DNA of 64,000 nt. Source: Myxococcota bacterium. Lineage in GTDB: Bacteria; Myxococcota_A; UBA796; CAJQPC01. The DNA lies in contig DASCPX010000071.1 in NCBI GenBank assembly GCA_036012755.1, forward strand, positions 32,001-96,000, in the 5' to 3' direction. This document shows positions 13,896 to 31,800 of this stretch, piece by piece. Every line of letters starts with the position of its first letter. The first letter of the stretch is position 1. The position numbers were made by a program.

Positions 13896-16800
13896 GTGCC
13901 CAGGGACGAGGACTGCGACAACGGAGAGGACGACGACCTCGACGGACACGTGGACTGCGAGGACTCGGACTGCCTGGACGAGTGCGTCGAGGACTGCGAC
14001 AACGGAGAGGACGACGACGCCGACGGAGACGTCGACTGCGCCGACGACGAGTGCGCGGGCGAGGAGGAGTGCGGGACCATCTGGACGGTCACGGCCGAGA
14101 CATGGACCGAGAAGTCCTACATCGCCTACGGCCCGGACATCGAGGACTGGCACGGCTACCCTGCGGTGCTCTGGATGCGCGGTGGGGTCGAGCTTCGCGG
14201 CGAGTCCACCCGCGGCGACACCTTCGCCTGCGAGGGGGACTTCAACATCGGGCCGGGGGCGTGGGATGACCAAGGCACCTGGTGGGAAGAAGGAACCTGC
14301 GAAGGCTGCGACTTCCGCTGGGTGATGGCCCCGCGCGTGGACGAGGACACCCTCAGCTTCCGGGGCGGCTGCCCCGTCGAAGAGATGCACCCCCTCCGGG
14401 TCGGAGTCCACAGGGGTTCCGACGAGCTCACCGCGGTGATCGAGTCCGACTGGCAGCCCCAGTACATCGCCAACAACGCCGGCTGGGGCTGGGACTCCAG
14501 CGACGGCCACGACTTCAAGTGGGCAGGCTTCTGGGACCTCCACCAGGAGAACCCGCGCAGCTGGGAAGTCAGCCTGGACTGAGGGGTCTCAGCGGAGCTC
14601 GTCGGCCAACGCCTCTGCGATGAGCTCGCCGATCAGTCGATGACCCGCCGCCGAGGGGTGGACGTCGTCCAGCATCGTGGAGGGGGGCAGGCCCGCGAAG
14701 TGCGGGGGGGTGTCCACCAAGGTGGCGCCAAGGTCCGCTGCGACCGCACGCATGGTGTCCCGATAGGCCGGGCGTGGCTTCTCGAGGTCCCTCCCGTCCA
14801 GGTCCCGGTCCGAGGGGAGGACCACGAAGACCGGCCGGGCGCCAGCGTCCTCCGCTGCACCCGCGAGGCCATGGAGGTTGTCTTCGTAGGCTGACAGCGG
14901 GACCCGATTCATGATCGGCTCGTCGCCGCCGAGGCGCCACTCCACGACCTGGGCTGCCTCTCCACCGTGGGCGATGGTGTCCAGCAGGCGGAACAGGGCG
15001 CTGCGCTGGAGGACCACCCGGAGGGCGGCGGCTCGCTCCGGGAAGACCACCGCGTCGGGGGGGCCCAGCTGGCTGTCGCTCCAGATGGTGCAGATGAGCA
15101 GCACGTCCGCACCCTGGTCGTAGAGCCGATGGCGGAACAAGCGGCTGGCCTGCTCGCTCGAGTAGCCAGGCACGCCGCCGTTGTAGGCATCCACCGACCT
15201 GCCCAGCTCCCGCTCGAGGTTCCTGGCCGCGACAGCGCTGAAGACCTGCTCGTCGCCGACGAGCACACCAAAGACCGTAGAGTCGCCGAGCGACATGAGC
15301 CTGAGGCTGCCCGGAGCCTTCGGGTGGGGCTGCGGGTTGCGTGTTCCCAGGTCGTTGATGGTCGTCTCCTCTGGCGACCCGAACATGCGCCGCTGCCCGG
15401 GGACCGGCTCCCAGCCCAGGAGCGCGGAGCCCTGCATCGTGTCGTCCTGAGGCGAGCTCCGGTGGATGGGCGGAGCAAGGGGCATCGCCCCCAGCTCGAG
15501 GAGGACCAGGACGACGACAACCGCGATCAGGGCGAAGAGGGGCTTCCGGCGGCTCACCAGGCGAGCCTATCGGTCCCTCAATCCTCGATCCACTCGCCGC
15601 GCTGCACCAGGGTGAGCTTGTGCAGCTCGTCGCGAGCCCGGGCGTGGCTGATCCTGCGCGCGGCGAGGTCATCCAGGATGCGATCGGCGCGCCAGCGGCG
15701 CACGACGCCGAGGAAGGGATCCACGAGTTCGTCGACCAGCGCGCGGAACAGGCCCTTCTCGCCGGCGATGGCCACCCGCGACATCACCTTGCCGCGGACC
15801 CGCAGCTCGTGCTGGATCAACCGGGACACGTCGGCGGCCAGCGCCGGCAGGCGCTCCTGCGGGAGGGACTCCAAGGCGCGGGCGACCTCCTGGCAGAGCG
15901 GGATGCACCACTCCTTCCACTCGCGGAGCGCCGCCATGCCGCGACGGGCGACCTCTGGATCCCGATCCCCCAGCTGCTCGACCCACTCCATCGGGCGCCG
16001 GGCGTAGACCCAGCGGTAGACCAGGTCGAGGCCCGTGCCCTTGATGTTCTGGCAAGACATGACCCGCACCAGCGTTCCCACCGGGCAGCTCATGGCGATG
16101 CGCTCGTTGATGGCGTCACCGGTCGCTCCGGCGTCCGGGACGAAGACCACGTGGCGCAGGAAGATGGTCCGGTAGACCCGGCCGACGTGTGCGGAGAGCT
16201 CCCGACCGTAGCTCCCATCGCGGGCGGCCTCGATGCAGGCCTTGCGAAGGGCGCGGAACATCAGCGCCTCGACCGCGAGCTCGACCCATTGATCGCCAGC
16301 ACCCGCCAGGCCGAAGTCCCGATCCCGGGCGTCGTGGAAGAGCGCCTCCGGGTGGGCGTTGGGGTGAAAGATCGTGCCCGCTTCGTCTCCCAGGCCCCGC
16401 AGCCGCGAGGCCAGCTCACCCAGCAGCAGCCGGGCTCCGTCCGACTCCAGCGGTGTCGCAGGCACATCCTCCACCAGGGTGTGGAGCTCGTGGCAGATCT
16501 CCTCTGTGCCCGAGCCCTCCATGTCGAGGCGCCGCATCGTCTCCAGCAGGAGCGAGGGCACATCGACGATGCGGAGGTCGTGCTCCAGCGCCGCGAGGCG
16601 GCCCTCCACCGCCGCCGTCCCGCCGCCAAAGACGTCGATGCGCGCGATGTGGTGGTCGAGAGCTTCTGCGATGTAGCCGCGCAGCCCCTCCAGGTTGGTG
16701 CCGATGCAGACATAGCGATGGGCCGCCGCGTCGCTGACCATGATCTCGGCGAAGACCTGCGAGCGAGAGACGCGGTCGTAGCGGTTGTTGAGCACCGCCA

Positions 16801-28800: not shown

Positions 28801-31800
28801 CACGATGGGTCGCAGGCCCGACAGGTTCGCCGTGCGCAGGGGCCAGCGAGTCACCAGGGCGCGCATCGCCAGCACGATGAGGATGACCTCGGCGACGGTC
28901 GCGAAGAGCTTGACCGGGTCCAGCCAGCTGATGGCCAGCAGCCCGCAGACGATGATGCCCCCGAAGTCCCAGCCATAGCGGGCGGTCGTGTGGGAGGCGA
29001 TGAAGGCGCCGATCAGGACGAGCACGTACTCCCGCGGGGCGTCGACGAATGCCCAGGACAGGTCCTCGTAGGTCAGCTCGAACTCGGAGAGGTTGAAGTT
29101 CGTGAGCGGGATGACGACGAAGACCAACAGCGCGTATACGGCGAGGACAGGCAGCAGCACCAGGGGCGCGCCCTTCAGCAGCCCCGGCTTCCAGAGGGTG
29201 TTCGCCGTCAGCGGCACCAGCACCAGCCCGAGGCTGTGCCAGGCCTCGGACAGCTCGAGATCCGCGCCGAGCAGCACCTCGCGCACGAGGTCTCCCTCGG
29301 CGAGCATGCGCACGAAGATCGAGACGAGGATGATGAGGAAGAACCGGTCGCGCCCGAAGACCCGGTCGAAGCCGGGTGCCCGAGCCATCACCCGCCCGAG
29401 GAAGTGGGCGACCAGGTAGGTGAGCACCGCCTCGCCCGCGACGACGATGGCCGCCTCCGGACGCACGGCCAACACGGCGCCGAGGTAGCCGGGCACCACG
29501 AGGCCCGTCGCGGGCCAGCCGAAGCGCTCCGCGAGCCACCAGAGCACCAGCACACCGATCAGCACTGACGTCAGCAGGCTGTTGTCGATGTAGGCGCCCG
29601 GCAGCACGTGCAGCATCAAATCAGCCCAACCGAAGCATCCAGGCTACGCGAAATGGGGCCCCAGGGGATATTCCAAGGTCCTTTCGCGACCCCCATGGAC
29701 CGGCTCAGGCGCTGCGATCCACCCCGCGTCCGCCGTCCCGGACCAGCTGGGGCCCGAGCATGCCGGCGCGCTTTCCGGCGCCGGGAGCCTCGACCAGTTC
29801 GACGACGAAGCCTGCCAGGCGCCCGCGGTCGTGGCTGGCGGTGAGCAGCAGCAGCCCGCCGTTGGCATGCGGGAGCCGCAGGGTGCCCTCGCCGTTCATC
29901 ACCCCGAGCACTTCGCCGCGCGTGCCACCGGCACCCTGCCAGATCCTGGACAGCTGCGGCCTCGCGGGGCGCCCCTCGGGGAAGAGGGTCTCCTCGAGGC
30001 TCTGGTCGATGTTCACCAGCCGGCCGAGGGGATCGAACAGGGCCCTGGCGTGGGCGCCGGCGCGGGCGGTGGCCTTGATCCGGCTGGCGTCGGACAGCAG
30101 CGCGTCGAAGGCCGCGTTCACGATGGCCACGCCCACCTGGATGTAGCTCTCGATGCTCTTCAGCTCCGGCACGCGGACACGCTTCTTCCGCGCCTGGTGG
30201 GCCGCGACGGCGTACAGCGGTCTCAGGTCCGGGCTCTCCCCGCGCTTGTCGATGAGCAGCACACCTTCTCGCCCACAGCGTGACTTCAGCTCGATGACCA
30301 GCGGATCGGCGAAGGGGGTGGGCACGTCCTCTCCGACCTCGATCAGCCCGGTGCCGTCAGCGCCCGAGACGGTCAGGAAGCCACCGTCCACGCACTCGAC
30401 CGCCCACACGCGATCGGCGATCCTGAGGTCGATCGCCGCCGTGCACAGGTCCTGCCAGTCCCTCTCGAGATCCACGGTGTGGGGCTCGACATGGAGCTGC
30501 CAGATGGCCCGGTCGACGAGGGCCTCGAAGCCCTGCGTGTGGCTGACCCACCGGGCGCACTGAGCCGCCAGGAGCCCGCCGGCGAGCGCGAGCACGGGCA
30601 CCTCGAGCGGAATCAGCACACCGATCGCCAGCGGCAGCGCGACCACGACACAAATGGCCGGCGCTAGCACCAGCCAGCGAGGACGACGCGTCGTCAGGAG
30701 CAACAGGGCTCCACCCAGACAACCCAGCCACGCCCCGACCAGGGCTGCGCCCAGGCGCGGCACCGGAACGAGGTCCCCGCCAGCTGCGGTGCGGGTGAGC
30801 ACCTCGGCCAGCGGTCTCGGGCCGGAGGCGGTCTCGACGAGCGGCACCGCCCAGGGTGTCAACTCGCCGAGGACCACCGTCCTGCCCTTCATCGCTGCGG
30901 GATCCAGGTAGGCGAGGTTCCGGAGCCCGACAGTGGGAACCGGGGTGTCCTCTGAGGCCACGATGTGCACTCCGAGTCCGACCTCGTCTCGACTCAGGGC
31001 CAGCCGACCGGGGAAGCTGGGATCACCAGCCTTCCCCATGGTCCAGCGTCGCGTGACGCCATCCCAGTCAGCCTCCAGGCCCACGTCTGCGGCGTGCCCC
31101 CGGTCGAGGCGGACAGCGTCCACCGCAACCGGGGGATTCACCGCGGCGACCTCCGCTGCACCCGCGCGACGCGCGAGCGAGACGGCCTTCGCCCAGTCCT
31201 CCACGCCCTCGGCCTCGTCCATCGCGACGAGAAGCACCTCCTCGGTCTGCAGGGGTTCGAGCCAACCGGCCTCGAGCAGCGAATCGGTCACAGGTTGAGG
31301 CCCCTGTGCGGCGATCCAGCCGATGAGTGCCGCCATCAACGCGGCGAGAGCGACGATTGGCACGAACCCTGGTTGCAGCTGTCGAGCGGCGCGAGCCAGA
31401 GCGGAGGCCTCCGCCCGTGATGCAAACGCACCACGGAACGCGCGCACGACGGACGTAGAGCGCGGTTCAGTCAACAAAGCCTCAGAGCGCAAGCTACCGC
31501 TCGGCCCCCCGTAGCGGCTTACGGGATTCTTACCGGTCGGCGCTACACTCCGTCCCGAATGTTGCTGATGTCGACGATCGCCTGGGCCGGCGAGGCCCAG
31601 GACCTACGCTACGAGGTGCGCATCGACGAGGTCGTCGTCGGTCACCGTGACCTCCGCATCAGCTACGTCGAGGCCGAGGACGGAGAGCGCCGGCTGCTGG
31701 AATCTCGGACGACCTGCACGATCGGAGGGATCGAGTTCGACCAGCACGCGACCGGCCTTGGAGCCGCTGGGGTGCAGGGCTTCTCCTCCTCGATGAAGGA

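Follow-up and report, generated by a model that had tools for sequence, protein, structure and literature searches.

The closest described systems are the polyglutamate synthases of Bacillus, encoded by PgsBCA(E) and CapBCA(D)E operons. Their ligase, PgsB, is a membrane-anchored enzyme of the Mur-ligase type, and PgsC is its membrane partner. Annotated pgsBC operons of Bacillus and Streptomyces have a gamma-glutamyl hydrolase or transferase next to them. In B. subtilis, PgsB and PgsC produce polyglutamate in the absence of PgsA (PMC6029982). CapB and CapC also define the 'PGA capsule' loci that the CapsuleFinder study (PMC5542703) predicts for most phyla, Planctomycetes and Fusobacteria among them; enlarged proteins, a hydrolase, a periplasmic protein and a barrel are not described in the portions of it that were consulted.

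The window analysed here, a 64,000-nucleotide stretch of a Myxococcota genome, contains five minus-strand genes in the order g19-g18-g17-g16-g15 (15578-29616), which probably encode a machine that spans the envelope, makes and exports a gamma-glutamyl polyamide and operates without CapA. The likeness to the Bacillus operons lies in g15, with a membrane-anchored Mur-ligase-type PgsB domain bearing the same motifs, and in g19, with PgsC; a gamma-glutamyl-cleaving enzyme in or beside the annotated B. thuringiensis and Streptomyces operons has its apparent counterpart in g17. The differences are extensive. Unlike the Bacillus PgsBCA(E) operon, this one has no PgsA/CapA or PgsE. Its ligase protein is 3.4 times as long as that of Bacillus, with an added N-terminal region that contains HEAT repeats and additional sequence at the C-terminus. 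Its PgsC is duplicated and fused to apparently dead hydrolase domains. The genes also run in the opposite order, from PgsC at the start to the ligase at the end. Whereas the Bacillus-type hydrolases are NlpC/P60 or GGT enzymes, the predicted hydrolase g17 has the fold of PghP and N-formylglutamate amidohydrolase (FGase), and a putative periplasmic protein and outer-membrane barrel are added. A literature search found no published description of this five-gene system. The preliminary description saw here an enlarged, Gram-negative PgsB/PgsC system without CapA, and that part stands; its view that the three middle proteins are all unknown does not, since folds can be predicted for g17 and g16.

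With the starts of the preliminary description, the listing of open reading frames gives the same five genes, and each of the four junctions is a 4-bp overlap. All five frames have a coding-type GC3 of 0.81-0.92. The g19 frame (26812-29619) encodes 935 aa from a TTG, or 934 aa from the ATG at 29616; the longest form of g18 (24416-27352) has 978 aa, and its 799-aa form begins with the GTG at 26815. A possible sixth gene (29705..31492, minus strand), 88 bp upstream of g19, encodes a 595-aa membrane protein with three hydrophobic segments by hydropathy and no Pfam match. Its membership of the operon is doubtful because a homolog adjoins g19 in only 4 of 12 loci of the order UBA796. As had been described, the operon lacks a CapA-family gene (the genome has three at other sites), the proteins g16, g17 and g18 have no Pfam match at E<=0.01, and hydropathy gives the same picture of hydrophobic segments. 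The three proteins have no NCBIfam family either.

The last gene, g15 (15578..19540; all features below are on the minus strand), encodes 1320 aa. Its HEAT repeats (aa 263-335, 18536..18754) are found again here (HEAT_2 E 4.1e-10), and HEAT-type matches occur in 11 of 28 sampled long homologs. A conserved middle domain separates this region from a membrane helix (aa 612-630, 17651..17707; hydropathy 2.19), the single one in a protein that has no signal peptide by hydropathy. The helix is kept in 13/13 orthologs and is followed by a K/R-rich stretch and then the P-loop, which is the arrangement at the N-terminus of annotated PgsB. The amide ligase domain (aa 618-957, 16670..17689) matches TIGR04012 (PgsB) with E 4.9e-60 and 203.3 bits, below the equivalog cut-off of 222.7 bits. 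Of the 12 plasmid matches listed for this domain, 11 are annotated capB/pgsB genes, with identities of 28-33% across 83-86% of 361 aa (best E 2e-28; 30.4% identity to an annotated capB); the twelfth is an archaeal Mur ligase, with 24% over 48%. The motifs G-x-RGKS, KTTG, ECMA, N-x3-DH-x3-GPT, AAN and N-x-R-x-DRV-x-R are common to g15 and two annotated PgsB proteins; together with the anchor just before the P-loop, they bear out the CapB-like ligase proposed earlier. This is the sole PgsB-like gene of the genome. The C-terminal extension (aa 958-1320, 15581..16669), which carries an invariant QNIKGTGLD-type motif at 1164-1172, is clade-specific: it is not found in the two annotated PgsB proteins aligned and is matched in 45 of 401 genomes of the phylum.

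The first gene, g19 (26812..29616), is present in 11 of 12 order loci and joins a tandem PgsC/CapC membrane domain to a 585-aa soluble tail. Caps_synth_CapC matches it in two stretches (E 9.2e-38, 129.8 bits), so the two CapC domains reported before are recovered. TIGR04011 (PgsC) matches with E 2.9e-18 and 66.5 bits, below its equivalog cut-off of 96.45. The membrane part (aa 1-348, 28573..29616) comprises two PgsC repeats and, as its last transmembrane helix by hydropathy, aa 328-345. Averaged over 12 orthologs, K and R are abundant in the loops at aa 72-92, 254-269 and 311-327; by the positive-inside rule, this last helix probably runs in-to-out, which would place the tail in the periplasm. 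Profile comparison with hhalign indicates that part of the tail is a degenerate version of the g17 hydrolase domain. The g17 profile aligns with that of g19 at a probability of 88.9% (E 2.4e-6), and with the cut tail at 89.2% on repetition. The module in question (aa 580-763, 27328..27879) lacks the metal and catalytic residues, and an upstream module (about aa 410-485) weakly resembles it (probability 62%, E 7.4e-5).

The 276-aa product of g17 (23589..24419) is predicted to be secreted, and its model (pLDDT 91.5) has a zinc-amidohydrolase fold. The nearest folds are FGase and the poly-gamma-glutamate hydrolases PghL and PghP, the same set as the structural neighbours published for PghL, and each close neighbour acts on a glutamate amide. 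Sequence searches do not find this likeness: there is no Pfam match in 13/13 orthologs and no PDB match. Residues H110, D114, H178 and E248 are invariant in 13/13 orthologs. In PghL, His41, Glu46 and His102 bind zinc and Glu165 is catalytic; the g17 residues resemble this site in their order and spacing. PghP/PghL (YndL; MEROPS M86, PF05908) and FGase have the invariant His, acid, His and Glu in the same order, but g17 has Asp where PghL has its zinc-binding Glu, one residue nearer the first His, as well as an extra N-terminal helical region of ~90 aa. In contrast to PghP and PghL, g17 is chromosomal and operon-encoded, without phage origin. It is apparently an active zinc hydrolase of the PghP/FGase type.

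The largest product is that of g16 (19537..23592; 1351 aa), with a signal-like N-terminus by hydropathy, a long acidic part and a C-terminal barrel (aa 1070-1324, 19621..20385). The model of the last 290 aa (pLDDT 90.6) is a 14-stranded outer-membrane beta-barrel. Its nearest folds are CymA and OmpG, which are 14-stranded uptake porins; BcsC, PgaA and PelB come second, ~3 Z units lower. Exopolysaccharide porins of the BcsC, PgaA, PelB and AlgE type have 16 to 18 strands and carry a sugar polymer, whereas the g16 model has 14, is better fitted by CymA and OmpG, and would carry a polyamide. In g16 there is no match to the PgaA_barrel or NfrA_C HMM, and no TPR domain is detected; one of 27 analogs has a weak TPR_19 match (E 0.002), and one analog carries a peptidoglycan-binding SPOR domain at its C-terminus (E 4.2e-11). 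In two genomes g17 and g16 form one reading frame; both fusions belong to one family and may be a single event. Between g19 and g17, in a conserved position, lies g18 (24416..26815; 799 aa), of no known family, whose hydrophobic segment at aa 5-23 would be a membrane anchor or signal. The presumed periplasmic parts are acidic, with pI 4.7 for g16 aa 20-1060, 4.9 for g18 and 4.6 for the g19 tail, contrary to simple electrostatic binding of a polyanion; the pI of g16 aa 1061-1351 is 10.0.

All five genes occur in the same order in 11 of 12 fetched loci of the order, among them that of G072, for which this had been stated; in the twelfth the contig ends after the third gene. The preliminary description had g16 relatives from UBA796 only; the module is present in several phyla. 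At least 569 stretches of species genomes contain relatives of the ligase, and the same gene order accompanies them in Corallococcus, Marinobacter, Halomonas, Competibacter and Verrucomicrobiota. Where a locus extends 8 kb or more upstream of the ligase, the upstream genes detected all stand in the expected order (58/58 loci, from many phyla), and g17 is detected in 50/54 of such loci; g19 lies directly upstream in 4 of 5 distant genomes checked. No conserved gene was found downstream of the ligase. The earlier count for g16, 3 of 120 other genomes, was too low, as relatives occur in 26 of 101 order genomes (G000 included).

Could the same architecture make something other than plain poly-gamma-glutamate? 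The ligase, being diverged, might use another amino acid as its monomer or make a mixed polyamide, or gamma-glutamyl chains could be attached to a lipid, glycan or protein acceptor and then exported. Because the scores fall short of both equivalog cut-offs (203.3 against 222.7 and 66.5 against 96.45 bits), function may have shifted, and ~30% identity to annotated PgsB/CapB points the same way. So do the ~360-aa C-terminal extension and 600-aa N-terminal region of the clade, absent from canonical PgsB, the acidic periplasmic domains, and the nearest folds of g17, FGase and the 2odf protein, whose substrates are small N-acyl-glutamates and not polymers. Nevertheless, every motif common to the two annotated PgsB proteins is retained, there are two copies of PgsC, which is not known outside polyglutamate systems, and all close structural neighbours of g17 act on a glutamate amide. 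We know of no other polymer made by a PgsB/PgsC pair, and consider a different product unlikely.

A role of the envelope genes in uptake and turnover, with the barrel importing polyglutamate or its oligomers from outside, g17 cutting them in the periplasm and the synthase co-located for recycling, would suit a hydrolase fold with intact invariant residues. It is very improbable, given that the module has no conserved inner-membrane importer or cytoplasmic gamma-glutamyl peptidase and that the envelope genes sit between the synthase genes with 4-bp overlaps, in an order held across phyla. Furthermore, the putative dead hydrolase copies are on the PgsC subunit itself, which would tie the periplasmic parts physically to the synthase. 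Least credible is that the five genes stand together by chance or shared regulation only, g16-g18 having a role unrelated to the ligase. In favour of this, neither g16 nor g18 has a family match, and 3 of 56 loci (L039, L054, L061) have no g16 at the expected position. Such an association leaves unexplained the overlapping junctions, an order and content conserved from Myxococcota to Gammaproteobacteria and Verrucomicrobiota, the g17-g16 fusions and the homology of g17 to the g19 tail.

The synthase and exporter that we favour would begin at the cytoplasmic face, where the membrane-anchored ligase domain of g15 would add glutamate to the chain at the expense of ATP. The tandem PgsC of g19 would be its membrane partner and probably the passage through the inner membrane. 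In the periplasm the chain would meet the g19 tail, whose inactive copies of the polyglutamate-hydrolase fold are likely chain-holding modules, the membrane-anchored g18, and g17, which would trim, size or release the polymer, as PgdS, GGT or CapD do in Bacillus operons. The g16 protein would then take the chain across the periplasm to its basic 14-stranded barrel, by which the chain would leave the cell. The host is a marine two-membrane bacterium, and the polymer that this machine would deliver beyond its outer membrane is most likely poly-gamma-glutamate.

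The five genes form one minus-strand operon at window positions 15578–29616, in which each junction overlaps by 4 bp. In order of transcription they encode g19 (934 aa), a tandem PgsC/CapC protein with a soluble tail; g18 (799 aa); g17 (276 aa), a protein of hydrolase fold; g16 (1351 aa), a barrel protein; and g15 (1320 aa), a PgsB-type ligase. Their GC3 values of 0.81–0.92 are of the coding type, and the G+C content of the window is 69–73%. Between positions 14000 and 32500 no sigma-70-like promoter was found; the single terminator-like site there lies inside the upstream 595-aa gene, and shuffled sequences give more such sites. 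The domain content given in the preliminary description is reproduced: Caps_synth_CapC matches g19 twice (E 9.2e-38), HEAT_2 matches g15 at aa 263–335, and g16, g17 and g18 again show no Pfam match at E≤0.01. The operon had also been described as lacking CapA, and the PgsA/CapA family (PF09587) does occur only elsewhere, with four matches in the genome, three of them above the cut-off and all off the operon's contig. Because PF09587 also matches 7 of 14 control genomes, these copies need not relate to polyglutamate.

A 595-aa membrane protein (29705–31492, minus strand) lies 88 bp upstream of g19 and has no Pfam match; its hydrophobic segments, one N-terminal and two later, are arranged around a loop of ~190 aa. 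A homolog adjoins g19 in only 4 of the 12 loci fetched from genomes of the order UBA796, and the protein may act on the operon as a sensor or regulator specific to the lineage. At the other end, a GDSL-type lipase/acylhydrolase with an N-terminal membrane helix (14589–15557, minus strand) begins 20 bp past the ligase stop codon; it was rejected as a member of the module, since it stands beside the ligase in none of the 12 order loci, nor has it a homolog anywhere in them. Nor does any gene family recur downstream of the ligase across 80 wider loci. Elsewhere in the window, a 3352-aa polyketide-synthase-like protein (3061–13119, plus strand) carries two KS-type stretches, AT, four carrier-protein stretches, KR, DH and a C-terminal phosphopantetheinyl transferase domain; its many tandem carrier domains resemble those of polyunsaturated-fatty-acid-type synthases. 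Repeated MopE-type metal-binding motifs occur in three proteins (1218–3236 and 32871–34556, minus strand; 40716–42938, plus strand), two of which have short fibrinogen C and collagen C-terminal matches and one FG-GAP repeats. A TldD/PmbA metallopeptidase pair lies at 36477–39384 (plus strand), with an amidohydrolase on the opposite strand upstream (34595–36034).

The ligase g15 matches the PgsB/CapB equivalog model TIGR04012 with 203.3 bits (E 4.9e-60), below the cut-off of 222.7, and the match spans aa 618–957 and model positions 5–329 of 380. A six-frame search of the genome gives 206.9 bits for g15 and finds no second PgsB-like gene elsewhere. When g15 is aligned with the annotated PgsB of a B. 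thuringiensis plasmid and that of a Streptomyces plasmid, the motifs G-x-RGKS (the P-loop), KTTG, ECMA, N-x3-DH-x3-GPT, AAN and N-x-R-x-DRV-x-R are invariant in all three proteins, as they are in 13 of 13 orthologs. The layout is shared as well: a membrane helix (aa 612–630 in g15) is followed by a K/R-rich linker and then by the P-loop (aa 646–654). This helix is the one clear membrane helix of g15, which has no signal peptide, and identity to annotated capB/pgsB genes is 28–33%.

In contrast to canonical PgsB, which is roughly 390–450 aa long, g15 has ~600 additional N-terminal residues, comprising HEAT repeats and a conserved middle domain, and ~360 additional C-terminal residues that include an invariant QNIKGTGLD-type motif. 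By eye this motif looks like the G-N-I-H-G end found in both canonical proteins, although the aligner placed it otherwise; if the likeness is accepted, aa 960–1140 would be an insertion. An Atlas search with the middle domain (aa 345–600) gave no lead, and a sequence search of the PDB returned no match to g15. Forms of the ligase of ~700 aa, the homolog P0167 among them, are found on long contigs, as in Nannocystis pusilla. They consist of the membrane helix, the ligase and the C-terminal extension and lack the 600-aa HEAT region, so that the N-terminal region of g15 is a separable module.

The smallest protein, g17, is a predicted hydrolase with the fold of the polyglutamate hydrolases PghP and PghL. 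Its model, built from a 13-ortholog alignment, has high confidence (pLDDT 91.5, pTM 0.90), and Foldseek aligns it with the PghL–polyglutamate complex 5onj (E 2.1e-6, TM 0.61); the top matches also include PghP (3a9l), a phage PM1 hydrolase and N-formylglutamate amidohydrolase. An A-P-H...D...T-G pattern and an L-H-G-F pattern are invariant across the 13 orthologs. Residues H110, D114, H178 and E248, all invariant, have the same order as PghL His41, Glu46, His102 and Glu165 and similar spacing, and from this they constitute a putative metal site and catalytic acid. The kinship with PghP/PghL is invisible to sequence methods: the g17 profile has no match among PDB sequences, and PF05908 (PghP/PghL, MEROPS M86) has none at E≤10 in any of the 13 orthologs, in a search whose HMMER filters discard most matches with E above about 0.1. 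No other gene of this type occurs in the genome.

Relatedness to g17 extends into the synthase itself. The membrane part of g19 is recognized by PF14102 (PgsC/CapC) in two stretches with 129.8 bits, above the gathering score of 27, while its score against the PgsC equivalog TIGR04011 (66.5 bits, E 2.9e-18) lies below the cut-off of 96.45; a sequence search of the PDB gave no match. The g17 profile aligns to aa 580–763 of the g19 tail with a probability of 88.9% (E 2.4e-6), or 89.2% on the cut tail, and the His and acid positions of g17 are lost there. The region is a dead copy of the hydrolase. A module further upstream (approximately aa 410–485) is weakly similar to the aa 580–763 module in profile comparison (62%) and reaches 6.7% with g17 itself; a second degenerate copy is possible. 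The location of the tail can be predicted from loop charge. Averaged over 12 orthologs, the loops at aa 72–92, 254–269 and 311–327 are K/R-rich and those at aa 105–128 and 170–196 are acidic, so that, by the positive-inside rule, the last helix (aa 328–345) would run outward and leave the tail in the periplasm. A periplasmic tail fits its kinship with the secreted g17.

The fourth protein, g16, would provide the outer-membrane component. Its last 290 residues have its strongest beta-type amphipathic signal, are enriched in Trp and Tyr, and have a pI of 10.0, as opposed to 4.7 for the remainder. A model of the last 330 residues, made from 32 sequences of several phyla, is of high confidence (pLDDT 90.6, pTM 0.81) and consists of one helix followed by 14 long antiparallel strands; all of its leading Foldseek matches are outer-membrane barrels. 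The C-terminus is thus securely modeled as an outer-membrane barrel fold that follows a long periplasmic region. Atlas leads for the g16 C-terminus are weak (0.88–0.90: NfrA_C, PgaA_barrel, SlipAM). Of the exopolysaccharide-secretion porin families, PgaA_barrel (PF21197) has, at E up to 10, no match at g16 and NfrA_C (PF13283) none anywhere in the genome. No Pfam barrel family appears in the 32 C-terminal segments, and the C-terminal profile has no PDB sequence match. Pfam scans likewise give no family in the order orthologs of g16 or of g18. TPR has no match in g16 or its 12 order orthologs, and among 27 distant analogs there is one weak TPR_19 match (E 0.002). A profile comparison of g18 with g16 is also weak (probability 35%).

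Two gene arrangements link the barrel protein to the hydrolase and to the periplasm. Two genomes, both from a single family within the order, encode g17 and g16 as one ORF, of 1607 aa in one (locus L026, 7493–12316, plus strand) and 1717 aa in the other (locus L027, 5998–11151, minus strand). The 27 distant g16 analogs have no Pfam family except in one, from Desulfomicrobiaceae (locus L097, 2910–8522, plus strand), which has a SPOR peptidoglycan-binding domain at its C-terminal end (E 4.2e-11, aa 1782–1847 of 1870). Together the fusions and the SPOR-ending analog place g17 and g16 in the periplasm, with the hydrolase linked to the porin.

The system is conserved in content and order. All five genes occur in order in 11 of the 12 fetched order loci, and the twelfth ends with its contig. 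Relatives of g16 were found in 26 of 101 genomes of the order, the present genome included (15 of 57 high-quality genomes), and the clade-specific extension of the ligase in 45 of 401 sampled genomes of the phylum (41 of 339 high-quality). The ligase half of g15 (aa 600–1320) recovers 1679 representative clusters at E≤0.001, of which 439 reach E≤1e-30; the best 150 matches all have E<1e-122 and are mostly 1250–1570 aa long. At least 569 stretches of species genomes encode ligase relatives, the best 80 of which include Corallococcus, Myxococcus, Pyxidicoccus, Halomonas/Vreelandella, Marinobacter, Competibacter, Sulfidibacter, Persicimonas, Verrucomicrobiota, Cloacimonadota and others. In databases these homologs are named 'hypothetical protein', 'CapB' or 'PgsB/CapB'.

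Gene order beyond UBA796 was examined with profiles of all five proteins. In the 54 loci whose flank was long enough, g17 was detected upstream of the ligase in 50, g18 in 39, g16 in 32 and g19 in 18, the counts for g16 and g19 being limited by divergence and by the 10-kb flank; the detected genes are in the expected order in 58 of 58 loci. The gap between g17 and g15 is filled in most loci by a single ORF of 1300–1880 aa, and in 4 of 5 distant genomes examined a tandem-PgsC gene is found directly upstream. At three loci (L039, L054 and L061) this gap holds no gene of the size of g16, and the ligase gene comes straight after the hydrolase gene; either the barrel protein is dispensable in these cases or its gene lies elsewhere. 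Apparent g16–g15 fusions in loci L080 and L084 are an artefact of a long stop-free stretch in the ligase frame of high-GC DNA: the g16 match in L080 is in a different frame from the ligase, and L084 has no g16 match. The distribution of the system is patchy. In the family of Vreelandella massiliensis, 81 genomes were sampled; the long ligase occurs only in that of V. massiliensis itself, and one other has a short PgsB-like gene. A Vreelandella genome, G104, has two long-ligase copies with a mutual identity of 65%, at least one of them with a tandem-PgsC gene ~12 kb upstream. DNA near-identical to window positions 19600–29599 is present in marine, seawater and hydrothermal-vent metagenome runs of 12 studies, 6 of which runs (2 studies) are marked as possible sources of this DNA. 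This identifies the organism as marine. No RNA run is listed among the sequencing runs that contain the near-identical DNA.

These components suggest a five-step model. The ligase g15 would polymerize the chain at the cytoplasmic face, and the chain would cross the inner membrane via the PgsC tandem in g19. In the periplasm, g18 and the dead-hydrolase modules of the g19 tail would handle it; g17 would trim or release it; and the g16 barrel would be its exit. The model agrees with the report that B. subtilis makes polyglutamate with PgsB and PgsC alone, without PgsA (stated in the accessible part of PMC6029982). It is also consistent with the gamma-glutamyl-cleaving enzymes of canonical operons, which are described in part of a review (PMC5751247) and are present in the annotated canonical operons fetched here. 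It is weakened by the scores of g15 and g19, which stay below their equivalog cut-offs, by the acidic character of the periplasmic parts and by the g16 barrel, which is most like uptake porins. Taken together, the evidence allows a bolder reading, which we hold tentatively, at slightly less than an even chance. The operon would represent a fourth type of synthase-dependent secretion system for exopolymers and the first whose cargo is a polyamide instead of a sugar polymer, with a dedicated inner-to-outer-membrane machine in many diderm phyla. PgsC would have recruited inactivated hydrolase copies as periplasmic chain-handling modules. The active copy would dock on the porin, to which it is sometimes fused. 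The enlarged ligase, which has a HEAT region and an extension specific to the clade, may make a product different from classical poly-gamma-glutamate.

The Bacillus model of polyglutamate synthesis involves no outer membrane. To our knowledge, the exit of poly-gamma-glutamate from two-membrane bacteria is an open question, and we know of no export route for Gram-negative CapB/CapC pairs. The operon gives a candidate for each step in the g16 barrel, the hydrolase g17 of the periplasm and the dead-hydrolase modules that the synthase carries. Neither the enlarged proteins nor the PghP-like partner, the dead-hydrolase tail or the barrel were described in any paper that the literature searches listed. 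Earlier work had predicted CapB/CapC pairs for Gram-negative phyla (PMC5542703), and the reference list of PMC4497714 names Fusobacterium as a Gram-negative producer. Chromohalobacter canadensis 28, a Gram-negative halophile, is a reported polyglutamate producer (PMC7762148) whose secreted polymer is said to consist of polyglutamate to 72%; no connection between this strain and the operon could be drawn. As the operon occurs in cultured, genetically workable bacteria, among them Corallococcus, Myxococcus, Marinobacter and Halomonas relatives, the model is directly testable. Given the 439 clusters and the 45 genomes of the phylum, the polymer could be common in the biofilm matrices of sea and soil and have been overlooked there. 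The system may also provide Gram-negative hosts for the production of a polymer that industry uses, and enzymes to control its size.
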